A DNA stretch of 41,700 nt from Candidatus Sigynarchaeum calidifontis (GTDB lineage: Archaea; Asgardarchaeota; Lokiarchaeia; Sigyniarchaeales; Sigyniarchaeaceae), in contig JAUQYZ020000001.1 of NCBI GenBank assembly GCA_030587475.2, forward strand, positions 1 to 41,700, given 5' to 3'. The position numbers and the translations under genes are program-made. Below are positions 3,580-41,697 of this stretch, piece by piece; within the stretch, counting starts at the first letter, position 1, and every line of letters starts with the position of its first letter. The notes beneath the pieces are model-generated. The model saw nothing but the letters and a program-made list of their open reading frames with translations, did no database searches and was not told the origin of the DNA.

Positions 3580-5073
3580 ATGACTGAACCGCAAAAAGAA
3601 GGCAAGAAGCAGCCGCCCGTGATATTCGAACCGGAGGCATATTTGAAGGCCTTGCTCCACGTATTGCGCTTCGCCTCCAATGGTATGGCAAAGGACTCGT
3701 GGGTAGAAGTCTACGGCTGGTTGGTCGGCAAGCTCGAAGGACCGGACAATAGCGTTGTCCATATCTACGATGCAGTTCCAATTCATCATGGGCGTGATAT
3801 TGAAGTTTCCTGGGATGCAGATGCCTACGTCCGTGCCGCCGAGTTCGACGAGCAACTCTATCAAAAAGCCGAAGAAAACCCGACCATGAAGGGTTTTTTC
3901 GTGGTGGGTTGGTATCATAGTCATCCTGGCCTGGATCTGTTTCTCTCGCAAACAGACGTCACGAATCATCTCGGCTTCCAGGGGCCCAATCCGAACAGCA
4001 TCGCAGTCGTTTTTGACCACACGAAGATCGTCCCTTACAAGCACCTTGGCTTCAAGATATTCAAGTTGAAGGATGCTTCCCCTGACAGCGACTACAGCGA
4101 GGTGGAATTCGACAAGGCCAAGTTCACGAAAGATGTCGTCGACGTGATTTACCTGGCCCAGAACATCGTCGAGCGGATCCAAGGCAACCAGCTATTCTCC
4201 CCGGAGATCAGCGAGGTACCGTCCATCTTCGCCCATCTCATGCTCCCGGGCGCGACACCACAAATCGATAAAACCCCGCCAATCGACCTGGATGCACTTT
4301 TCGAGAAGATGCTAAAATCCACCGATGCACTCATCCAGAAGGTGCTCGGAAACTCGATCATCGGGAAGCTCGCGGCCGAGATGAACCCGGCTCTCGAAGA
4401 ATGGTATTCGGCATTTATTCCCTACGTGGTTTCCTCGCTCAACAAGTGGCTGCTTTCCACCGCCGAGAAACTCATCACGACGAACAAGCTCGTCCTGGGG
4501 AGTATTTACACGATCGCCGGCGGGCTGGAAAAATCCATGAAGAACGTGAACGAGTGGACGAAGGCGCAGCTCGGCGACAGCGAGCGTCACTTGAAGAAGC
4601 TCGTGGAATCGACCCACGCGAAGCTCGTGGCGGGGATGGAATCGAAGCTCGCCGCGCAAGAGAAGAATCTCTCCACGTCGCTCGACGGGCTCGCGCAAGA
4701 CTTCGCCAAGGCCGAGGACAAGCTCGCCAAGGTGGTCGAGAGCGTTGCCTCGCTCGCCGCGCAAGTCGACGTCCTCGCGAAGAAAGTGGAGGGCATGGAA
4801 GCCGGCATCCAGGCCAAGATCCAGGAGCGGCTCGAAGAGGTCAACAAGGGCGTCGACGCGGCGCTCCAGGGGCTCGACGCGCGCATCGCAGAGCAAGTGA
4901 ACAAGCAGATCCAGCAATTCGGGAAGGACATCGTCGCCACGCGCGACGCGATCATGGCCGACTTGAAAGCGATCTCCGATGACATCGCGAAGGAACGGCA
5001 AGCTCTCGACGAATTCGCCGCGTCCAAGGCCCTCAAGAAGATGCAAGAAGACTTGCACAAGCTCGTGAAATGA
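3580..5073 (+). CDS. Rpn11/CSN5-like MPN+ (JAMM) metalloprotease with long C-terminal amphipathic coiled coil
   Basis: YLKALLH...EVYGWLVG and VVGWYHSHPGLDLFLSQTDV give an intact E..HxHx7SxxD motif; the C-terminal ~200 aa is Ala/Glu/Lys/Leu-rich helical repeat. Confidence 0.9.
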   Translation: MTEPQKEGKKQPPVIFEPEAYLKALLHVLRFASNGMAKDSWVEVYGWLVGKLEGPDNSVVHIYDAVPIHHGRDIEVSWDADAYVRAAEFDEQLYQKAEENPTMKGFFVVGWYHSHPGLDLFLSQTDVTNHLGFQGPNPNSIAVVFDHTKIVPYKHLGFKIFKLKDASPDSDYSEVEFDKAKFTKDVVDVIYLAQNIVERIQGNQLFSPEISEVPSIFAHLMLPGATPQIDKTPPIDLDALFEKMLKSTDALIQKVLGNSIIGKLAAEMNPALEEWYSAFIPYVVSSLNKWLLSTAEKLITTNKLVLGSIYTIAGGLEKSMKNVNEWTKAQLGDSERHLKKLVESTHAKLVAGMESKLAAQEKNLSTSLDGLAQDFAKAEDKLAKVVESVASLAAQVDVLAKKVEGMEAGIQAKIQERLEEVNKGVDAALQGLDARIAEQVNKQIQQFGKDIVATRDAIMADLKAISDDIAKERQALDEFAASKALKKMQEDLHKLVK

Positions 5074-5106
5074 AAAGAAAAAAGAAGATCCGTCTCATTT
5101 TTTACT
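5074..5106. terminator. Probable bidirectional U-tract terminator between convergent genes
   Basis: A-run (aaagaaaaaagaag) and T-run (tttttt) in a 33 bp gap between two stop codons. Confidence 0.4.
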
Positions 5107-6435
5107 TTAATAGCTGAAGGTCACGCGCTCGCGATAATAACTGCTATCCGAGTAACCGCTGCTCTTGCGGCGCTTGCGGATCGCATGGATCACGATCACG
5201 ATCGCGATGAGCCCGATGAGGCAATAGAGCACCCACGGGTTTTTCGTGAAAAAATCGAGCAGCTGGTCCCATATCGATGGTGGTGCTTCTTGTTGGAGTA
5301 CCATGAAGTCGTAGTGCACCGCCTGGTTCACCCCAGAGGAAACCCAGAAGGGATACGGGAGCGTCGACACGTTTTCGGACGGTGTCGGGGACAACGGCGG
5401 GGTGAGCCCCTGCCCGATCCACACGCCAACCGTGTATGGCACGTGGATGTTGTCGATGCGGGAAGTAAAATCGATGCTACCCCCGTCGCCCCATGTCGGG
5501 TCCGAAAGCACCCAACCAGCGCCGGGAATGAAATATTCGGCCCACGCGTGCCCGGTCATGTTATCTTGTGTAGTGCTTAGACCAGTGGTCTCGAACGCGA
5601 AGCGCCACTTGGTTCCAACGGCCGCACCATAGTTCGGGCTGACTGCCGAACCTGCTGAATTGGCGATCACGAGGCCACGCAGCACGCGGGCAGGTATGCC
5701 GCACGCGCGCAGCAGCGCGACCATGAGATAGGAATACTCCGTGCAATCGCCGGTGTGGTAGGTTATGGCCCATTCCGCCCCGTGTTCCTCGCTTTGCACC
5801 GAATATGTCAACAAGTTCTTGACATAGTTGTACACGTTTGCTGCAGTCGTCCACGGGTTGGAGGCATTCAATGAAGAAGCAGCGGTGACGATGGGGCCAA
5901 AACTCTTGTTGATGTAGCGCTCTTCTTTCGTGTACAACGAGTAAAGCCCGTCGGTCTTGTTGTAACTCGCCATCGTGACGCCGGCTTGTGATTTCCAGGT
6001 GACATCGCGCAAGGTCAAGTTGCCCTGCACGTTCATTTTCCACGTGGTGCCACTGGGGACGCTTAAATCGAAGTAATGGAATTCATTCCCGAAATCGTCG
6101 ACGTCGAAGACGTGGGACAGGCTCGATCCATAAGTCAAGCTCGTCATGACAAACTCTTGCTGGCGCACCCCGGACTCGCCGAGGATGGTGCGGTTCGTGA
6201 TCATGGGGATCCAGCGCTCCGTGAGAAAAGGCCCAAACCCGGATTTCGAGATGGTGTAGGTGTAATTGTAAAAATACGTCGTGTTGCGATTGTAAGTGAA
6301 TGTACCGGCCGGTGGCGGCCCGTAATATGCAGCCAGAGAGAGCGCCTTTGCAGGCATAACGGGCAAGGCGGCTAGCTGCATCCCGACGAGCGCCAGGGTC
6401 ATCAGCGTGAACGCGATACGATTCGTGCCTTTCAT
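5107..6435 (-). CDS. Secreted, C-terminally membrane-anchored transglutaminase-like cysteine protease
   Basis: N-terminal signal peptide; GDCTEYS...LRACGIPAR, GHAWAEY and DPTW supply the Cys-His-Asp triad; a TM helix is followed by RKRRK. Confidence 0.9.
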   Translation of the reverse strand: MKGTNRIAFTLMTLALVGMQLAALPVMPAKALSLAAYYGPPPAGTFTYNRNTTYFYNYTYTISKSGFGPFLTERWIPMITNRTILGESGVRQQEFVMTSLTYGSSLSHVFDVDDFGNEFHYFDLSVPSGTTWKMNVQGNLTLRDVTWKSQAGVTMASYNKTDGLYSLYTKEERYINKSFGPIVTAASSLNASNPWTTAANVYNYVKNLLTYSVQSEEHGAEWAITYHTGDCTEYSYLMVALLRACGIPARVLRGLVIANSAGSAVSPNYGAAVGTKWRFAFETTGLSTTQDNMTGHAWAEYFIPGAGWVLSDPTWGDGGSIDFTSRIDNIHVPYTVGVWIGQGLTPPLSPTPSENVSTLPYPFWVSSGVNQAVHYDFMVLQQEAPPSIWDQLLDFFTKNPWVLYCLIGLIAIVIVIHAIRKRRKSSGYSDSSYYRERVTFSY

Positions 6436-30028: not shown

Positions 30029-30185
30029 GATCGAAATTCACTCGCCGTTTATGCAAAGTGATTAGAATGTGATGTTGAATGCCAAGATTGATTTAAAACT
30101 TGGTTTTACGAGCCGAGGTTGTTGCTAGCCGGGCCGAGATCCACGTTTAAGTGCCCGGCGGGGGATGCGTAGCAGTGACGAACCG

Positions 30186-31013
30186 ATGACGACAGTGGCG
30201 ATGCCCGACCCGGCGGCGCTCGACATCGAGATACACGACTTCCACCGGCACGTGGAGATCGCCGATGCCGGCGACATGAAGGTATACCACGTCACCAGTG
30301 CGTGTATCCTCCCGTCATGGCGCGAGTACAGGGCATCTGCTTTCGATGCCTACCCATCCAACGATTTCACGAATATTTTTTGGTACAAGGCCGATGTCAA
30401 GACGATCCGGCAGAAATTCGCTGGCTGGGCAGGCCAGCTCTTCACGTTCATCCCCGTCGATTTCCAGGGCGGCGTGGACAAGTTCAAGCGGGACCTCGAC
30501 GAGCTCGATCCCGCCGGCGTCAAGCTGCACCCGCTGCAATGCTTTCCCCTCGACAAGGGCTTCCTCGATCCCTTCTTTCGCATCATCCGGGACCGGGATC
30601 TCCTCGTCCACGTGCACACGGACTGGCCATCCAGAACCGAGTTCGGCAAGTTCAAGCCCGTTCTCGGGGCGACGTTCGGCAAGCTGGCACGGTGGTATAC
30701 CGACATCACGTTCATCATGGGCCATGCGGGCAACAACGATTCCTATCTCAACATCTGGAAAATCGTGAAACGGTGCCCTAATTGTATCGTGGAAACATCC
30801 ATGGCCCCGACCCCAGCGGAGCTCGACCGGGTCATCGCCCGGGTGGGTGCCGACCGCATCGTGTTCGGATCCAACTTTCCATACTGCAACACGGCGGTCG
30901 AGATAACGCGGGTTCTCGCGCTCCATCGCGCGTCGGCGGAGGACAAGCGGGGCATCCTTGGTGAAAACGCACGCACGATCTTGAAGGACAAGCCAAGGGT
31001 GGTGGTGCCGTGA
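30186..31013 (+). CDS. Amidohydrolase_2-family TIM-barrel metallohydrolase (copy 1)
   Basis: DFHRH, GVKLHP, VHVHT, MGHAG, FGSNFP (Asn in place of the usual Asp). Confidence 0.88.
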   Translation: MTTVAMPDPAALDIEIHDFHRHVEIADAGDMKVYHVTSACILPSWREYRASAFDAYPSNDFTNIFWYKADVKTIRQKFAGWAGQLFTFIPVDFQGGVDKFKRDLDELDPAGVKLHPLQCFPLDKGFLDPFFRIIRDRDLLVHVHTDWPSRTEFGKFKPVLGATFGKLARWYTDITFIMGHAGNNDSYLNIWKIVKRCPNCIVETSMAPTPAELDRVIARVGADRIVFGSNFPYCNTAVEITRVLALHRASAEDKRGILGENARTILKDKPRVVVP

Positions 31014-31873
31014 TCGAGTTTCGCGGAGTACGGTACAGCGTGTTCGACGTGCACACGCATTGGTCTAACCTGGTCTGCAAAGTTCTCAGGGGCGTGCTCG
31101 AGATGGCCGCGCTGCCTGAGGTACTCGACCTGGTGTTCGCTAGCTGGAGCGACGTGGAATCGCGAACACGCAGCCGGTCCGAGCGCAACATGGAATTCTT
31201 CCCCCTGGTCCTCGACCGGTTCGGCATCGACCGTGCCGTCCTCTTGCCCGTGTTCGGCTTCGATGTCGGGTTCAACATCGAGATCGGCCGGCGCTTCCCG
31301 GGGCGTGTCACGAGCTTCGGGGCGGTGCCGCCGCGGGTGAGGGACGCGGAGCGGCGTTTCGAGCGGATGCGGGAGGCGGGCGTGAAGGGCCTCAAGCTCC
31401 ACGCGAATTACCACAAGTTCAGCCCGCGCTTGCACGCCGCGGAGCTGTCCCGCTTGTTGGGCTGGTGCAACGACGAGGGCATGATCGTGCTGTTCCACTC
31501 GGGGTCGCACTACGAGATCCGGGACCTGGTACCGGTGTTAAAGCCGTTCGACGACTTGCGCGTGATCATCGGCCACTCGGGTCTCGGGAACCAGGTGGAC
31601 CAAGCCGTGGCAGCGGCGAAGGTGCTGCCCAGCGCGTACCTGGAGGTGTCGAGCCAGCCGTACTCGTACATGTTCGAGCGGGCGCTCAAGGACCCGGACA
31701 TCGGGGTCGAGAGGTTCTTGTTCGGCAGCGACTTGCCGGGCATCCACCCGCTCGTCGAGGCCATGAAGGTGCTCCAGTTCCCCATTTCCGAGGCTGACAA
31801 GCAGCTCATCTTCTCGGGGAATGCCGAACGATTGCTCGACATTCGCATTGCAGAAAACCGTCAAGACAGATAA
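31010..31873 (+). CDS. Amidohydrolase_2-family TIM-barrel metallohydrolase (copy 2)
   Basis: DVHTH, GLKLHA, LFHSG, IGHSG, FGSDLP; GTGA overlap with copy 1. Confidence 0.9.
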   Translation: MIEFRGVRYSVFDVHTHWSNLVCKVLRGVLEMAALPEVLDLVFASWSDVESRTRSRSERNMEFFPLVLDRFGIDRAVLLPVFGFDVGFNIEIGRRFPGRVTSFGAVPPRVRDAERRFERMREAGVKGLKLHANYHKFSPRLHAAELSRLLGWCNDEGMIVLFHSGSHYEIRDLVPVLKPFDDLRVIIGHSGLGNQVDQAVAAAKVLPSAYLEVSSQPYSYMFERALKDPDIGVERFLFGSDLPGIHPLVEAMKVLQFPISEADKQLIFSGNAERLLDIRIAENRQDR

Positions 31874-31960: not shown

Positions 31961-32419
31961 TTATTTTAGCGGGACAAACTGGCTGCTTTTTGTCGCGCCG
32001 ATGCCTGGCGCGCCGTGGCGAACTGCTTTATTAGTGATCGAGAACTCGCCGAGGTATCTTCCGATCATCTCAGGAACGATGGTAAATTCCAAGAACGTCA
32101 TGCCATTGTACACGCCAACCGTTAAACCGACGAACTCGGGCAAGATGACCATGTCACGCACGTGCGTGCGCACCACGACCGTCTTGCCCTTCTTCAGCGC
32201 CCGCTTTGCAGCCCGCAGTTTTTCTAGCAATTTTTTCTGGCGCTTGGGAATGCCTCGAAGAAGCGAGCGTCTCTTTCGTGCATCGAGCAGCTTGATGAAG
32301 GAATCCATGCTGAGCCGTCGTAATTCGTCCATCTGGAACCCGCGGAACAAAAAGACCCGCTTTTTCAGCTCTTCCTCCGACTGCTGCTTCGGTGCTTCGG
32401 GTGGGGGGATTTCAGCCAT
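31961..32419 (-). CDS. rps19: 30S ribosomal protein uS19
   Basis: RTHVRDMVILPEFVG, PEMIGRYLGEFS, HGAPGIGATKSSQFVPLK. Confidence 0.97.
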   Translation of the reverse strand: MAEIPPPEAPKQQSEEELKKRVFLFRGFQMDELRRLSMDSFIKLLDARKRRSLLRGIPKRQKKLLEKLRAAKRALKKGKTVVVRTHVRDMVILPEFVGLTVGVYNGMTFLEFTIVPEMIGRYLGEFSITNKAVRHGAPGIGATKSSQFVPLK

Positions 32420-33357: not shown

Positions 33358-34071
33358 TCAATCGCCGCCATCCTCATCGTCCCCATCTTCCTTGTCTCCC
33401 TCGTCGCCATCGAAATCGTCCTCCTCGCCACCCTCATCTTCTTCCAAGTCAGTGTCCCCGTTTTCCTCGTCAATGAAGCTGTCATCATCGTCATCTTCAT
33501 CAGCATCTTCATCGGCAGCATCTTCAGCAGCATCGATTGGCTCGAGGTCACCCAGGGCGTCTCGGGCGACGAACTGTGCCCCAGATTCACTGAACATGTC
33601 GCGTATCCCGTCTATCGCATCGGGATCGTCGGGATCGATGTTGAGCGCGCTCTGGAAACAGAAATTGGCCTCGACCTCGTACCCGTGCTTGAAGAGATAC
33701 TTGCCGATCGTCACCCACGGGGTCGTGTCGAAGAGCGTTTGCATGAACGCGTTCTTGAAGCAGCTCTCCGCGCTCCCCTCGTCGCCTTGCCGCGCCAGCG
33801 CGAACCCCATTCCGATAAATGCCTCCGGGTTCTCCCGCCGCACCTTGAGGGCCGAACCGAACGCGACGATGGCGGCGTTCGTTTCGCCGAGTTGCAGGTT
33901 GACGAGCCCTAGCTGTACCCACGCATCCACGTGACCCGGATCGAGTATAGTAGCTGCTTCAAAAGCGGCTAGCGCCCCCCTGGCATCGCCGTTCATGTCG
34001 AGCTTGACGCCCTCTTGGTACCGGGTTTCTGCGCTGCCACGTGGCGATCCCGCGTCCTTTTCACCAGTCAT
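33358..34071 (-). CDS. TPR protein with ~55-residue Asp/Glu-rich C-terminal tail
   Basis: About four canonical TPRs (AWVQLGLVNLQLG..AIVAFGSALKVRRENPEAF) followed by EDAADEDADEDDDDD... Confidence 0.88.
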   Translation of the reverse strand: MTGEKDAGSPRGSAETRYQEGVKLDMNGDARGALAAFEAATILDPGHVDAWVQLGLVNLQLGETNAAIVAFGSALKVRRENPEAFIGMGFALARQGDEGSAESCFKNAFMQTLFDTTPWVTIGKYLFKHGYEVEANFCFQSALNIDPDDPDAIDGIRDMFSESGAQFVARDALGDLEPIDAAEDAADEDADEDDDDDSFIDEENGDTDLEEDEGGEEDDFDGDEGDKEDGDDEDGGD

Positions 34072-34134: not shown

Positions 34135-34935
34135 TCAATTGGATGAGCCGGGCATCTCAAGGAACACGCCCTTCTCCGCTATCTTGCCGAGGAAGGCCAT
34201 GATTTCCGTGACCGTGCTGGACAACACCTTAGCATTGTCATATTTCGAGATAATGGCCTCCAATTGCTTATTAGTCTTGTTTTTCTTGAATGCGGCCACG
34301 ATATCGACCATTCTCGGTATGGCGCGCATAATATTGTCACATATGGTCACGTGCGCATACTGGGACGTGCGGGACATCGGGTTCAAGTCGATGGCGATGA
34401 TCTTTTTTCCAGCCTTGCGAAGCGCCTCGGTTCTATCCCCGTCCTCTAGCGGGACGAGCACCACGTCGGCGATCGCGATGCCTCGCGGGTCGATGATGCG
34501 TCTGTTGCTTTCGAGATTTGCAAGGGTCGCGGGCGGCACGTCGCCAAGGCCCAGGATTTCGGTCGCGCCGGCCTTCCGGAGCACTTTTTCGATCGCTGCC
34601 TCGCGGCCAGGCTCCCGGTAGAACAAATTGACCTCCAGCTTGGCACCGATAGCAGCGCCCAGCTGCACGATGCTCTCCGGGACGAGAGCCGCCGCGTTCC
34701 CGTTGATCGAGATGACCGGATGCTTGGCGAGCAACAACATCGCCACTGCCGCTTCCATCGCCTCGACGGCGGATGGCAGCGTCTTTTCACCCATAAGGTA
34801 GTCGAATGCCTCCCCGCGACCGTGCGCGAACAACCCGGCCTTGGTCACGACCTTCTGTTCCATACCCTCGATGATCTTCTGGCGCACGCGCAACGATTCT
34901 GCACGCGGGTGGCTAGACGGGATGTGATCGCTCAT
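34135..34935 (-). CDS. 4-phosphopantoate--beta-alanine ligase (archaeal phosphopantothenate synthetase)
   Basis: HPRAESL, AHGRGEAFDYLMGE, SINGNAAAL, EVNLFYR, VPLEDGDR, IDLNPMSRT. Confidence 0.95.
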   Translation of the reverse strand: MSDHIPSSHPRAESLRVRQKIIEGMEQKVVTKAGLFAHGRGEAFDYLMGEKTLPSAVEAMEAAVAMLLLAKHPVISINGNAAALVPESIVQLGAAIGAKLEVNLFYREPGREAAIEKVLRKAGATEILGLGDVPPATLANLESNRRIIDPRGIAIADVVLVPLEDGDRTEALRKAGKKIIAIDLNPMSRTSQYAHVTICDNIMRAIPRMVDIVAAFKKNKTNKQLEAIISKYDNAKVLSSTVTEIMAFLGKIAEKGVFLEMPGSSN

Positions 34936-34986
34936 ATGTTGCAGAAGGAGGACTTAAATTACTACTTATCCTCCCTTGCTACAGCC

Positions 34987-36129
34987 ATGATCCCCGCCGT
35001 TCTTGCGACCATCAAGGAGATCGCCGCGTGCCAAACGTCCATTTCGACATTGGACTTGATCGAAACCAAACTGCGATCCATCCAACAAACAAGCCAGGGA
35101 GTGAATATTTCTCGCGTCGGGGGAGGAAATATCTGTGTATTCGAACAAGAGCCTTATTCCCCCCATGCAGGGCCTGGATCGCTCGTGATCCTCGTGAAGG
35201 TGGCTAACGCGGATCCAGCAATGCACGATGGTGCCGCGGGAGCTCGTGCAAGCACGCTGGAGCGATCGCTGCACGTTCACGAGGAGCGTGCCGGCGGGAA
35301 AGGCATCGCGAAAGCGCTCATGATCGCGGTGTTGCTTGACTGGCTCGGCGATCTCTCGTCCCCGCATCGCGTTGGCACGGTACGTGTTGTTTTTTACGGC
35401 TGGAGCGATGCCAATATCGGTGCCGTCGATAGATTTGCCGCCGTGCTGCCGGTGAATCACGCGTTCTTGTGGTTCATGGAACCAACTAATGCAATGGCGT
35501 GCCCAGCAGAAAAAGGTTTTGGTAAATTGACGATCACGTTTAACACCGATGGTTCAAGCACGGCCAGCGACATGGCGGAAAAGCTGTCGAGAAGCATCAA
35601 TGAAAGATTCAAGCCATCCCACCCCGTGTATCCACTCGACCCGAACAATCGACTCTCCTTCCGGTTCCTGCCGGGCGCGCAACACGCGGTCGCTTCACCC
35701 TCTAGCGAGACATCCCCGCCCTCGATCTACGTTACATTCTCGCACCACCCGCTCGCTCCCGCGTTCAAGCAAGACTTGACAGAACACGTTAATGCCCAAG
35801 GAAAACGGCTCGGGGTGGGGGATGGCTTGCGCATCAAGACGGAACACCATTTTCCCGGAGCCTTGTTCGACACGAGACTGGAAGCCTTTCAGCGTTTCAT
35901 AGCAATCCACCGCCGCATTTTTTTCAAGGAACCATACATGGACTGGCACGTTCACCCGAGCATGGCATCGGCCGTGTTCAAGCATCATCCGGCCGCGCCG
36001 GCCGTGATCTACGGTCTGGGAGATCCATATTTAGTGGAGGACGGTCAAGCCATCGTTTCGGCGACCGATGCATCGGATTTCCGCGACTTGCTCGGTGCGG
36101 TCGGCGAGGAATTCCTTTTCAAGACGTGA
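34987..36129 (+). CDS. Degenerate M20 (ArgE/DapE-like) fold protein, metal ligands apparently lost
   Basis: Retains EPT..x..AEKGFGKLTITF and C-terminal AVIYGLG, but the HxD, DxKG, EE and final His motifs are replaced; start uncertain. Confidence 0.6.
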   Translation: MIPAVLATIKEIAACQTSISTLDLIETKLRSIQQTSQGVNISRVGGGNICVFEQEPYSPHAGPGSLVILVKVANADPAMHDGAAGARASTLERSLHVHEERAGGKGIAKALMIAVLLDWLGDLSSPHRVGTVRVVFYGWSDANIGAVDRFAAVLPVNHAFLWFMEPTNAMACPAEKGFGKLTITFNTDGSSTASDMAEKLSRSINERFKPSHPVYPLDPNNRLSFRFLPGAQHAVASPSSETSPPSIYVTFSHHPLAPAFKQDLTEHVNAQGKRLGVGDGLRIKTEHHFPGALFDTRLEAFQRFIAIHRRIFFKEPYMDWHVHPSMASAVFKHHPAAPAVIYGLGDPYLVEDGQAIVSATDASDFRDLLGAVGEEFLFKT

Positions 36130-36133
36130 GACA

Positions 36134-36931
36134 ATGATGAACCGGCAGACTATCGGCGCCCCCGTCGTGGGCGGCACTTTCAAGATCGAACCAGGCCAGC
36201 CAGGCACTGGCCTCGTTATAAACGGGATCCCGCTTCAGCCCGTGAACATCATCCACGCCGATCACCGGGTAGACATCCGCCAAGGTTACAACGTCGCGCT
36301 CATTGTCGAGCATCCCGTGGCCGCTGCAACCTTGTTCGCCATCCATGACGCGAAGATCACGGGAAACAGGAAATCCTGGGATTTTTACCGGGCGGCCGAT
36401 CGCGAAGCACACGCGAGGGGTCTCAAGCCTGACGCCGTTCTTGGCCTCGCGGACGGCTCCATAGGCAGGGACGTGGCCGAGCAAATGAGACGCACGGCCA
36501 TCGTCGAAAGCGACGTGCCCCTCGTGATCAACACGGTCGCTGAACCTGCTGTCATCGAAAAAGATGACGGGAACTGGATCAGCATCCACCCTGCGATAAA
36601 GGGCGTTCACGTGCTTGATATCTCGGTCTCCATGTTCAACCTCGGCCCATTGCATGCCACGCTCGACCCGGTGAAAGGATTATTGGACGATGCGGGTACA
36701 AGTGACTTGAAGATCGATGTGCTCAACGCGCGATCCTCGGCGGTTATCGGGCTGAAGCAAGAAGGCTTGCTTCACGCGCTGGGTGACATCGTCGCCGACA
36801 TCGCTGGCACGGGTAACATCCGCGCTGGAAAAATCGATGCTCGGCTCAGCATAGGATACCACAAGGCCTCGATCGGCCTTGTCCAGAAACTGATCAGTCA
36901 AAAGCTGATCGTTCCAATTCTTGAGCGATGA
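36134..36931 (+). CDS. LpxC-like Zn-dependent deacetylase homolog
   Basis: RQTI..PV, PGQPGTGL, IVEHPVAA, ADGS, LHALGDIVADI and GYH are collinear with LpxC QRTL, PAPANTG, TVEHLxAA, MDGS, RHKxLDxxGDL and SGH. Confidence 0.75.
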   Translation: MMNRQTIGAPVVGGTFKIEPGQPGTGLVINGIPLQPVNIIHADHRVDIRQGYNVALIVEHPVAAATLFAIHDAKITGNRKSWDFYRAADREAHARGLKPDAVLGLADGSIGRDVAEQMRRTAIVESDVPLVINTVAEPAVIEKDDGNWISIHPAIKGVHVLDISVSMFNLGPLHATLDPVKGLLDDAGTSDLKIDVLNARSSAVIGLKQEGLLHALGDIVADIAGTGNIRAGKIDARLSIGYHKASIGLVQKLISQKLIVPILER

Positions 36932-37156
36932 TTCGGTAACCATGAACATGCAACAGACATACCACGTCATGGTTCGTTCACGACCGTGAAGGATGCCGGC
37001 TGTTTGCTGGAATTAAGTCGATTAATATGGAAATCCCTTGTTACTTTTGGTATATTTTCCACGGATGGGTCTTGCATCTCCTTTTCTTCGGAGGAAAATG
37101 TTATTTCAGATGCGAAATTCCTTCCTTTATCCAGCAAAAGCCGGCGAATATCACCT

Positions 37157-38632
37157 ATGGCCAACCTCCACACGAACACTGCGACGAATCTGCTCCAATT
37201 GATATCGACGGGCGAAACGACGCCCCTGGAGGTCATGGCAACCTATCTCGAGCGGATCGAAAAGATCGAACCAAAACTACACGCGCTCACATTCGTTAAC
37301 AAGGATGCTGCGCTGAAGGCGGCCGAAAAAGCCACAAAGGAGCTGAAAAGTGCCAAGGGCAAGAAGAAGCCACTGTTGGGCATGCCTGTCATCATCAAAG
37401 AATGCATCTCCACGAGCGGGATCCAGACGACTTGTTGCTCCAGGATATTACAAGGTTACATCCCACCATACGACGCGACCGTCGTCACGCGACTGAAACA
37501 AGCTGGTGCCATCATCATCGCCAAGTCAAACATGGACGAATTCGCTATGGGCTCGTCGACCGAGCGCTCGTGTTATGGCCCCACGCTGAACCCGTGGAAC
37601 GTGAAGCGCGTGCCCGGCGGGTCGAGCGGTGGTAGCGGCGCGGCGGTCGCTGCGCGCGAGGCACCCTTGTCCCTCGGTTCCGACACGGGTGGTTCCATCC
37701 GCTGCCCCGCGGCATATTGTGGCGTGTCCGGCATCAAGTCGACCTACGGCCGCGTGTCCCGGTATGGCCTCGTGGCCTACGCCAACAGCTTGGAGCAGAT
37801 CGGCCCCATCACGCTCACGGCTCGCGACAGCGCCTTGCTGCTCGAGATCATCGCAGGCAAGGATCCCGCGGATTCCACGTCCGTGGACATTCCCGTGGAC
37901 AAGTATTCGCAAGGCATCACGTCGCTCAAGGGCTTGAAGGTCGGCATTCCGAAAGAATTTTTCGGCGAGGGGTTGAACGCCGACGTTAAAGCCGCCGTCG
38001 AGAAAGCCATCGATAAGCTGAAAGAGCTCGGTGCCACGACCCAGGAAATTTCCTTGCCATCGATCAAGTACGCCCTCCCCACCTACTACCTCATTGCCAT
38101 GTGCGAAGCGTCGTCGAACCTCGCGCGGTTCGATGGCCTCCGGTACGGCCTCCGCGTCGATGTCCCGAAGGGAAACTACGACGCGATGTTTTCCAAGACG
38201 CGCCAGGAGGGCTTCGGCCCGGAGGTACGCCGACGCATCATTCTCGGCACCTATGCCTTGTCCGCGGGCTACTACGACATGTTTTACGTGAAGGCACTCA
38301 AGGCGCGCACGGTCATTCAAGCCGATTTCAAGAAGGCCCTTGCCAAGGTCGACGTGCTCGTTGGGCCAACCATGCCCACGACCGCGTTCGAGATCGGGAC
38401 GAAAATCGACGACCCGCTCACGATGTATCTCGAGGACATCCTCACGGTGCCCATCAACCTCGCTGGCGTGCCGTCGTTATCCGTACCTGTCGGAACCGAC
38501 AAGGAGGGAATGCCGATCGGCATGCAAATCATGGGGAACTTTTTCAAGGAGCAGCAAGTCCTCGGGGTCGGCATGGCGCTGGAGGACGTGCTGCAGTTTT
38601 ACAAGAAAATTCCACCGCTGGCGGAGGCGTGA
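37157..38632 (+). CDS. gatA: Asp/Glu-tRNA amidotransferase subunit A
   Basis: NMDEFAMGSST, PGGSSGGS, GSDTGGSIRCPA, EASSNLARFDGLRYG. Confidence 0.97.
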   Translation: MANLHTNTATNLLQLISTGETTPLEVMATYLERIEKIEPKLHALTFVNKDAALKAAEKATKELKSAKGKKKPLLGMPVIIKECISTSGIQTTCCSRILQGYIPPYDATVVTRLKQAGAIIIAKSNMDEFAMGSSTERSCYGPTLNPWNVKRVPGGSSGGSGAAVAAREAPLSLGSDTGGSIRCPAAYCGVSGIKSTYGRVSRYGLVAYANSLEQIGPITLTARDSALLLEIIAGKDPADSTSVDIPVDKYSQGITSLKGLKVGIPKEFFGEGLNADVKAAVEKAIDKLKELGATTQEISLPSIKYALPTYYLIAMCEASSNLARFDGLRYGLRVDVPKGNYDAMFSKTRQEGFGPEVRRRIILGTYALSAGYYDMFYVKALKARTVIQADFKKALAKVDVLVGPTMPTTAFEIGTKIDDPLTMYLEDILTVPINLAGVPSLSVPVGTDKEGMPIGMQIMGNFFKEQQVLGVGMALEDVLQFYKKIPPLAEA

Positions 38633-40196: not shown

Positions 40197-41697
40197 GGTC
40201 TCATTTAGAACCCTAAAACGAAACAAATATCTCAGTGAGACCAGTTTTACCGACTAATGATGTTTCACCTCTTCTTGTTTTACCCCGTTTTTAAGCCTTT
40301 GCTTGCACCTCGATGCTGCAATTCGAGTAATCGGCCTTGAAATCAGGTCCAACCATTCGTTTGAAGAAAATACCCGCTCGATATCGTCGTCTTGTTTTCA
40401 TGCACGGTTGCAACATTGGCTCGTTCTGCAAATGCATCACGGCACGTATCCGTCCATCAAGCGCCACCACTGACCGCGACCCGCCTAAATGGACGACCGT
40501 CCGGATGATATCATTCGTCGTTTCCGAGTGATTGTTCTGAATGCACCTTCCAGCAAACAAGTCGAATGCATCTTGCATGCCCTTCACCACTGGCGGGATC
40601 GCGCCATTCGAAAATACCAGCCTGCCTTTATTCGGTCTCTCCTTGACGTATCCCTTCCGACCGGTCTTGAACACGTCGAACAAGCTCGGACGTCCACGTT
40701 TTTTCGGCTTTTTCTTGTCTGGCAACTTCGTCTTCTCCTTGTTCGTTGACCCTTTCGGGCGGCCGCGCGGCTTCGGCGCGGGCGGATTGACCGGTTTCGT
40801 GACTTGCTTGACGTGGTACTGTCGTTTCCTTTGCTTCTTGAAGATAGCCGTGCGCACGCCGATCAATGTCTCGATGCGCACGTCGCCGTCGTACTCGATG
40901 CGCTCGATGATGGCCCTGTCGCATGGTATCTCATGGGGGTGCACGATCAGTGTTAACGGGTATCCGAGATGGCGGGCCATCGCGCGCGTGACCTCGTGGG
41001 CGTCTGCCGTGATGACCTCAATTCGTCGAGGCGAGTTCGCTTGCGCCTCGTCGAAAGCCTTCCGCATATCAGCTTCCGCGCGTGCCGGCGAGACGTTGAT
41101 GCCGAGCACCTTCGATGACCTGTAGCCATGAACGATGATCGCGCAGATGGTTTCCCCGTCGATCGTGAAAAACGTCTCGTCGATGGACACCGCGTGATCC
41201 TTGGTTTTTCGATGCACGAGCTTGTCTCGTCGCTTCCCGCGTGCGATGGTTGCATCCACCGCCGATCGTAGCAGCGACACGAACGCGTCCGAGACGCCAT
41301 GCTGCGCGGCGATGGTCTTGGCCTTCGCACCACGCCGGTAGAGGGCATCGATCATCTCGCCGATCTCCCGTTCCACGAACGTGGCGATCTCGCCGGACGT
41401 GAGCACGGTGAACTGCCGCCCGGTCTTTTTGCCACGCTTGATGCGACACGCCTCGTTCTTGCAGAGGAATGCAGCAACCGGGCCATCTTCTCTTGGGCGG
41501 GAGCCGTCGCGAACGATATCGGTCGAGAAACAATCGGGACAGCAAATCACCAAGCTAGATACGAGGAGGAACGCGCCATACTCGGTCTTGAACATGATGG
41601 ACGCACGAAGTTCCGGCCTTTTCACGTGTTTTCGTTTTACCATGACTATAGAATGGTATAACTCGCTAACGGGCCTTTTATAATCTTCAGTGATGCC
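40197..41697 (-). mobile_element. Putative insertion sequence; ends tentative
   Basis: Transposase flanked by weakly similar GG-starting ends: ggtctcatttagaa at 40197 and ggcatcactgaaga (reverse complement ending at 41697). Confidence 0.45.
40291..41643 (-). CDS. DDE transposase (IS1/IS6-like) with Zn ribbon, HTH and two AT-hooks
   Basis: CPDC..x..CKNEAC; KTIAAQHGVSDAFVS HTH; SIDETF, ITADAH and NNHSE catalytic residues; PRGRPKG and KRGRPS. Confidence 0.85.
   Translation of the reverse strand: MVKRKHVKRPELRASIMFKTEYGAFLLVSSLVICCPDCFSTDIVRDGSRPREDGPVAAFLCKNEACRIKRGKKTGRQFTVLTSGEIATFVEREIGEMIDALYRRGAKAKTIAAQHGVSDAFVSLLRSAVDATIARGKRRDKLVHRKTKDHAVSIDETFFTIDGETICAIIVHGYRSSKVLGINVSPARAEADMRKAFDEAQANSPRRIEVITADAHEVTRAMARHLGYPLTLIVHPHEIPCDRAIIERIEYDGDVRIETLIGVRTAIFKKQRKRQYHVKQVTKPVNPPAPKPRGRPKGSTNKEKTKLPDKKKPKKRGRPSLFDVFKTGRKGYVKERPNKGRLVFSNGAIPPVVKGMQDAFDLFAGRCIQNNHSETTNDIIRTVVHLGGSRSVVALDGRIRAVMHLQNEPMLQPCMKTRRRYRAGIFFKRMVGPDFKADYSNCSIEVQAKA

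Follow-up and report, generated by a model that had tools for sequence, protein, structure and literature searches.

A distant LpxC-fold protein of Asgard archaea with a conserved zinc centre, a predicted M20-fold partner and a coenzyme A gene context

LpxC, a major target for antibiotics, is regarded as serving one purpose only, the synthesis of lipid A in bacteria. What, then, does an LpxC-like protein do in an archaeon that has no lipid A pathway? The question is raised by an open reading frame (ORF) in the first 41,700 nucleotides of contig JAUQYZ020000001.1 from the Asgard archaeon Candidatus Sigynarchaeum calidifontis (assembly GCA_030587475.2); this whole stretch is referred to below as the window. 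The ORF encodes 265 amino acids (aa) plus a stop codon (Table 1). Because relatives open with MNRQ, translation may in fact begin at the second ATG (36137). A sequence-only reading of the window had proposed a repurposed UDP-sugar or glycolipid N-deacetylase of an undescribed archaeal envelope or glycan pathway. The ORF is a distant LpxC-fold relative in which the zinc catalytic centre has been kept. For its function we propose an undescribed heterodimeric zinc amidase, comprising the LpxC-fold protein as catalytic subunit and an M20-fold pseudoenzyme, which would cleave a small vitamin B5-type amide and feed coenzyme A (CoA) synthesis. The substrate is putative and the chances of this proposal as a whole are judged to be about even.

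Direct searches with the protein, at E ≤ 0.1 in Pfam and at E ≤ 10 in NCBIfam and, by phmmer, among PDB sequences, gave no match. The HMMER comparison with the LpxC Pfam model, PF03331, that the sequence-only reading had suggested as a check was negative for the protein at the Pfam threshold given above and for the whole genome at E ≤ 10. Two relatives (L008 and L035) carry a precomputed PF03331 match that is merely "faint". Sixteen close relatives were collected at 51–81% identity, with the source labels Sigynarchaeota, Lokiarchaeota or Promethearchaeota. A library of 1.8 billion proteins contained 39 cluster representatives, the named ones being Promethearchaeota, Njordarchaeum and Odinarchaeota. 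Every relative carrying a name is an Asgard archaeon.

A profile of the 16 close relatives alone found LpxC at E 0.16, weaker than some chance matches, so that a divergent profile of 36 sequences was needed. This profile matched Aquifex aeolicus LpxC at E 1.1e-10, with three collinear stretches aligned (family/Aquifex): VEH/VEH, HalGDvigD/HKVFDLIGD and YH/GGH. When the 36-member profile was compared by hhalign with the single E. coli LpxC sequence, the N-terminal domain alone was aligned, at 39.5% probability. The AlphaFold2 model had a predicted local distance difference test score (pLDDT) of 87.4 and a predicted template modelling score of 0.87. The top 50 Foldseek matches to this model were all LpxC (best E 5.5e-13). 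Superposition on LpxC with VIA-align, a comparison also suggested earlier, upheld the fold: Z was 22.4, with a root-mean-square deviation (rmsd) of 2.9 Å over 220 residues, and the next fold reached a Z of 6.9. The nearest ESM Atlas clusters were all bacterial PF03331 (template modelling score 0.71–0.73). The same two-domain fold is shared with the LpxC (EC 3.5.1.108) of Pseudomonas aeruginosa (6mo4), A. aeolicus (1p42) and E. coli (4mdt), at the same rmsd over 220–225 residues and at a sequence identity of 14–20%, which is invisible to PF03331 and NCBIfam.

In the 36-member alignment, where identity falls to 25%, the sole invariant columns are E59, H60, G104, P153, H214, D218, D222 and H243. 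The roles of the LpxC counterparts have been reviewed: H79, H238 and D242 bind zinc; E78 is the general base; H265 is the general acid, tuned by D246; and T191 hydrogen-bonds a transition-state mimic (PMC6286764). K239 contacts the pyrophosphate of UDP and the 6'-OH of glucosamine (GlcN), and the K239A substitution greatly reduces kcat (PMC6286764). By this correspondence H60, H214 and D218 would bind zinc in the archaeal subunit, E59 would act as general base, H243, held by D222, would act as general acid, and S201 would supply the oxyanion hydroxyl. The motif in the window protein reads H214-A-L-G-D218-I-V-A-D222. Position 201 is S or T in all 36 relatives, and ARS of the family aligns to ARTF of E. 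coli LpxC. Because the H/H/D zinc ligands, the base Glu, the acid His with its Asp and the Thr/Ser hydroxyl are collinear and kept, the protein very likely uses the metal-dependent amide hydrolysis chemistry of LpxC. The catalytic motifs picked out in the sequence-only reading (the EH pair, the H-x3-D-x3-D stretch and the distal His) are thus found unchanged in all 36 relatives.

The features by which LpxC fits its substrate are missing. At position 215, the counterpart of K239, the 36 members carry A (29), S (2), V (2), T (1), C (1) or W (1), and never K. After ARS/ARTF the next aligned column leaps from E. coli residue 192 to 231; 11–14 residues lie between S/T201 and H214, and 46 between their E. 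coli counterparts, T191 and H238. The beta-alpha-beta element at the position of Insert II, the acyl-channel insertion of the C-terminal domain, is not present in the AlphaFold2 model, and the deletion amounts to approximately 33 residues. Both the replaced lysine and the reduced acyl passage had been noticed from the sequence and are confirmed by the alignment. A conserved insertion of approximately 21 residues with no LpxC counterpart has been gained. It lies in the segment between G77 and G104, which has a fixed length of 26 aa, carries near-invariant W82, D83, R86 and R90, and was left unaligned by hhalign against E. coli LpxC. The earlier remark that the protein is short applies only slightly: it is barely below Aquifex LpxC (about 270–280 aa), the deletion being masked by the new insertion. 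Since the catalytic positions are kept and both K239 and Insert II are lost, the protein is very probably an active metal-dependent amidase that is not a UDP-3-O-acyl-GlcNAc deacetylase.

The gene directly upstream encodes the presumed partner. Its stop lies 4 nt ahead of the LpxC-like start; the gene itself may begin at 34936 or at 34987. The window copy had no Pfam or NCBIfam match, and neither protein of the pair is covered by a Pfam or NCBIfam family. A Njord-type relative of the partner matched TIGR01910 (ArgE/DapE) at 2e-12, together with M20_dimer, and the partner family profile matched DapE 7uoi at E 7e-4. The AlphaFold2 model of the partner (pLDDT 74.7) was superposed on DapE 7t1q with a Z of 29.1 and an rmsd of 3.2 over 342 aa. 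The partner shares the whole two-domain fold of ArgE/DapE-type M20 enzymes (PF01546/PF07687, TIGR01910; DapE 7t1q, ArgE 8uw6) and keeps the EPT...KG lid-entry motif in part. Unlike these enzymes, it has no conserved metal ligands. Across 11 members at 14–61% identity the invariant residues were T167, Y215, F227, G230, P255, W320 and G343; no His, Asp or Glu was invariant, so the M20 di-metal ligands (HxD, bridging D, EE and C-terminal H) are not conserved. The column of the DapE C-terminal His ligand is likewise not conserved in the profile alignment, and the loop in which HxD and the bridging Asp would be expected was modelled at low confidence. Judged from these residues, the partner is probably a pseudoenzyme-like subunit and not a hydrolase. 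The partner family adjoins the LpxC-like gene in 12 of the 14 loci compared, over a partner identity of 14–61%. One energy-coupling factor (ECF) gene lies between the two in the loci of genome family f6, and 3.5 kb separate them at L006. The partner at L002 was taken at 385 aa.

A complex of the two proteins was modelled. The ipSAE score was 0.86 (runs 0.87, 0.86 and 0.81), compared with 0.01 for the best of three controls. Of 80 solved complexes, 58 attain the mark applied to this score, as do 2 of 110 mismatched pairs; own alignments were used, so these counts are only rough. At least 79% of contacts were common to the runs, and the pLDDT of the partner was at least 81. We know of no solved LpxC–M20 complex, so the pass is unlikely to reflect model memory. 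On the LpxC-like side the predicted interface comprises residues 84–96 of the new insertion as its core, plus 40–52, 106–108 and 203–204. On the partner side it comprises residues 172–174, 212–231, 254–255, 293–297 and 314–320. These are the stretches with the invariant residues of the partner, in which conservation maps to the predicted interface instead of to metal ligands; the invariant Y215, F227, G230, P255, P316 and W320 are among the interface residues. Conserved residues of both families thus fall in the predicted interface. Residues 203–204 of the LpxC-like protein directly follow S201, at the site where Insert II was lost. The model suggests a heterodimer in which the partner would cover the side of the cleft once occupied by Insert II and help to build the substrate pocket, so taking over the pocket-forming role of the lost insertion. 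The LpxC-like protein is predicted to be an obligate partner of the M20-fold protein, which sets it apart from LpxC.

Table 1. Positions in the window of the LpxC-like gene, its principal residues and the two genes upstream.
Feature	Position	Strand	Basis
Phosphopantothenate synthetase (PPS; archaeal CoA pathway), divergent from the partner gene	34135..34935	-	PF02006, E 1.2e-69
M20 (ArgE/DapE)-fold partner, probably non-catalytic	34987..36129	+	Fold model, family profile, adjacency, complex model
LpxC-fold zinc amidohydrolase, presumed catalytic subunit	36134..36931	+	Translation, AlphaFold2 model, Foldseek, VIA, family profile
E59-H60, corresponding to LpxC E78 (general base) and H79 (Zn ligand)	36308..36313	+	Invariant in 36/36; aligned to VEH of Aquifex and E. 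coli LpxC
Family-specific insertion, residues 78-103, WDFYRAADREAHARG..., not in LpxC; predicted partner-docking surface	36365..36442	+	Conservation, complex model
S201, corresponding to LpxC T191 (oxyanion-stabilising hydroxyl); Insert II deletion of ~33 aa right after	36734..36736	+	S/T in 36/36
H214-x3-D218-x3-D222, corresponding to LpxC H238, D242 (Zn ligands) and D246; A215 at the K239 position	36773..36799	+	H, D and D invariant; aligned to HKVFDLIGD of Aquifex LpxC
H243, corresponding to LpxC H265 (general acid)	36860..36862	+	Invariant in 36/36; aligned to GGH of Aquifex LpxC

Gene neighbourhoods were also compared. In the window and at L002, L011 and L033 a divergent gene for phosphopantothenate synthetase (PPS) is found immediately upstream of the pair, and at L006 the partner alone adjoins PPS; this adjacency holds over 39–81% identity. 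Pantoate kinase (NF041122/NF040725, E 1e-52 to 1e-20) is encoded 2–6 kb off at L002, L006, L012 and L034, together with a pyridoxal phosphate (PLP)-dependent decarboxylase and sometimes ApbA (ketopantoate reductase type). The f6 loci carry the following genes on one strand: partner, ECF S component, LpxC-like protein, AsnC-type ligand domain, pantoate kinase, LbH protein and CoaBC (TIGR00521, 392 bits). The f6 genomes are 1.3–1.4 Mb in size, and the locus of an Odinarchaeota-labelled relative looks alike. In family f13 the order is partner, LpxC-like protein and pantoate kinase, with overlapping stops and starts. At L010 a true panF, encoding the sodium/pantothenate symporter (TIGR02119, 534 bits against a cut-off of 328), is present with a yhdT-like DUF997 gene at 4383-6117 on the reverse strand; it lies 2 kb from the LpxC-like gene, the partner and a true M20 (ArgE/DapE) deacylase gene, and OPT transporters are encoded at the same locus. 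The lineages of L010 and L030 do not resemble Asgard archaea. By our rough estimate, a CoA or vitamin B5 locus occurs within 8 kb in about 4 of 7 lineage groups, compared with about 2–3% for a random gene. No glycosyltransferase, flippase, sugar-nucleotide or envelope gene was found beside the LpxC-like gene in the approximately 17 loci examined.

Some loci are arranged differently. A divergent branch of the family (L030:5203-8777 and L031) occurs on many metagenome contigs and comprises a short-chain dehydrogenase/reductase (SDR), a true M20 peptidase, a 278-aa protein at the partner position and the LpxC-like protein. It adjoins an Opp/Dpp-type ATP-binding cassette (ABC) transporter, with a DUF7987 gene next door. 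In a Promethearchaeota relative (L033:2817-5633) a TldD/PmbA pair lies between PPS and the partner gene. In another such relative (L034:108-3026) the divergent neighbours encode an Amidohydro_3 protein and a member of the enolase superfamily (MR_MLE).

Of the 301 genomes sampled from the phylum, 9 carry the LpxC-like family: all four of f6, the one genome of f13, all three of f16, and the genome that holds the window. PPS was found in 261 of the 301, and in none of f6 (0/4), f13 (0/1), f19 (0/5) or f20 (0/5). The f6 genomes are G001, G013, G024 and G035, and the f13 genome is G009. In G001, G035 and G009 PanB and PanC were searched for and not found, so PanC was rejected as a replacement for PPS there. 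ApbA gave weak partial matches only in two f6 genomes and a clear match in the f13 genome. Each of G001, G035 and G009 has exactly one pantoate-kinase-like gene, which is the operon copy. In f6 and f13 the module accompanies a truncated pathway that keeps pantoate kinase and has no known route to 4'-phosphopantothenate. In the Sigynarchaeum genome PanB, ApbA, pantoate kinase (contig C209) and PPS are all present. Because that genome keeps its de novo genes and f6 and f13 have a truncated pathway, the module cannot simply replace lost biosynthesis.

From this context the proposed zinc amidase would act on a small, soluble B5-type amide: pantothenate, or a larger vitamer such as pantetheine. The bond cut would be that between pantoyl and beta-alanine, or the cysteamine bond of a larger vitamer, and hydrolysis would hand usable pieces to the archaeal CoA pathway (pantoate kinase, PPS and CoaBC). 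In the Sigynarchaeum genome, with its de novo genes, this would be an accessory side-route for salvage. Plain pantothenate cleavage is disfavoured in f6 and f13 because PPS is absent there. The same type of reaction is carried out on the two amide bonds of B5 vitamers by pantothenase (pantothenate amidohydrolase, EC 3.5.1.22) and by pantetheinase (vanin, EC 3.5.1.92). Vanins belong to the nitrilase superfamily, with a fold unrelated to that of the LpxC-like protein; pantothenase is not known to have an assigned gene family. A more specific version of the proposal is tentative and has well below an even chance: that the pair is the missing enzyme by which archaea that lack pantothenate kinase and follow the pantoate kinase/PPS route use external B5 compounds by cleavage, and that in the PPS-less f6 (Odin-like) and f13 it is part of an unrecognised route from an imported vitamer to 4'-phosphopantothenate.

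Several observations count against a B5 amidase. The putative link of the pair to CoA comes from gene neighbourhood alone, and the complex is a prediction. No CoA gene lies within 8 kb at the f16/Njord loci (L009, L023, L024 and L028), where PPS, pantoate kinase and ApbA are 25 kb off, nor at L032, nor at L030–L031, where the neighbours are SDR, a true M20 and the peptide ABC transporter. The neighbourhood shared by the Loki-type loci could be inherited synteny. In the Sigynarchaeum genome salvage is not needed, given its complete set of PanB, ApbA, pantoate kinase and PPS. In f6 and f13, which have neither PPS nor PanC, cleavage of pantothenate to pantoate and beta-alanine cannot feed CoA unless the kinase acts on pantothenate or an unrecognised ligase exists. 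The OPT, true M20, TldD/PmbA, Amidohydro_3 and MR_MLE neighbours point to general breakdown of peptides or N-acyl amino acids.

That last point leads to the strongest rival, a role of the pair in nutrient catabolism: imported peptides or N-acyl amino acids would be cleaved by a general deacylase or peptidase working with its M20-fold partner, and the CoA neighbours would be due to synteny or coincidence. It would account for the position of the genes beside a peptide transporter at L030 and L031, for the OPT transporters and the true ArgE/DapE deacylase at L010, and for the neighbours at L033 and L034; M20 relatives, moreover, are typically N-acyl-amino-acid or dipeptide hydrolases. It does not account for two Asgard families in which the pair shares an operon with pantoate kinase (and with CoaBC in f6) and with a vitamin-type ECF S component rather than a peptide transporter, nor for panF at L010 or the persistence of PPS adjacency. 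B5 vitamers are themselves peptide-like amides, so this explanation overlaps with the B5 amidase, and as a separate explanation it is considered unlikely. A supply of beta-alanine (or cysteine) for CoA, released from N-carbamoyl- or N-acetyl-beta-alanine or a beta-alanyl peptide, would also suit the CoA neighbours, and among the proteins structurally related to the partner are carnosinases and N-carbamoyl-beta-alanine amidohydrolase. The partner has no metal ligands, however, so the substrates of its relatives weigh little; free beta-alanine would be useless in f6 and f13, which have neither PPS nor PanC, and the Loki-type loci already have a PLP-dependent decarboxylase beside pantoate kinase. 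We regard this supply function as quite improbable.

Of the sequence-only reading the broader part stood: an archaeon with no lipid A pathway has a repurposed, catalytically intact LpxC homologue. A UDP-sugar or glycolipid N-deacetylase for an envelope or glycan pathway would agree with the LpxC fold and with the intact deacetylase-type centre, and archaea do make N-glycans and amino-sugar polymers that require deacetylases. Against it are the K239 position, which is never Lys, the deleted acyl channel and the absence of glycosyltransferase, flippase, sugar-nucleotide and envelope genes from the loci examined; the conserved neighbours are instead the dead M20-fold partner, PPS, pantoate kinase, CoaBC, panF and the ECF S component. 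The patchy spread over the sampled Asgard genomes suits an accessory function more than an envelope pathway. This function is very doubtful, a little more so than beta-alanine supply. A true LpxC (EC 3.5.1.108) of the lipid A pathway, or bacterial contamination, would explain the fold and the catalytic residues only. The C-terminal domain of LpxA (PF13720), the N-terminal domain of LpxD (PF04613), LpxB (PF02684) and LpxK (PF02606) were, like PF03331, not found in the 89%-complete genome, and control genomes were matched; the earlier observation that the window has no other lpx genes therefore extends to the whole of this assembly, for which a search for lpxA, lpxD, lpxB and lpxK had been suggested. 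The flanking genes are archaeal: ribosomal S4e, L24e-type, S3, L22 and S19, the archaeal UMP kinase PyrH (TIGR02076), PPS and GatA/GatB. They rule out bacterial contamination, which the sequence-only reading had also thought unlikely, and the named relatives are all Asgard. With K239 and Insert II missing as well, the probability of a true LpxC or a contaminant is negligible.

A second, ancient branch of the LpxC fold would show how a scaffold can be retooled, with the chemistry kept and a substrate-binding insertion swapped for a separate pseudoenzyme subunit. The gene context, which differs from that of LpxC in being one of CoA and B5 genes in archaea without lipid A genes, points to an unrecognised step in archaeal CoA metabolism, including that of Asgard archaea which have pantoate kinase and CoaBC and no known phosphopantothenate route. 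If B5 cleavage is the true function, the pair would provide a gene for an orphan-type amidase activity and the first functional LpxC-fold chemistry outside lipid A. The hypothesis is open to direct test, since the two proteins are small and soluble and can be expressed easily. In the literature library searched, no paper was found that connects an LpxC-like protein with Asgard archaea or with CoA salvage in archaea; the sole match for LpxC with Asgard concerns bacterial LpxC-FabA fusions.

Further genes of the window were recorded as follows. A functional tie of the LpxC-like gene to the downstream GatA/GatB genes was considered and dropped, their adjacency being confined to this window among the loci compared. 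The GatA ORF (36986-38632, forward strand) is listed at 548 aa, and its true start is probably an internal Met because the Amidase domain begins at residue 82. The gap from the LpxC-like gene to gatA contains no evident gene of the size of gatC. A 450-aa ORF with no Pfam match adjoins GatB (40291-41643, reverse strand). Between the UMP kinase and PPS genes, a tetratricopeptide repeat (TPR) protein with a long, highly acidic C-terminal tail rich in D, E and G is encoded at 33358-34071 on the reverse strand. Two tandem Amidohydro_2 (PF04909) genes with no NCBIfam name (30165-31873, forward strand) break the ribosomal run between L22 (29573-30028) and S19 (31961-32419), and lie on the strand opposite to it.

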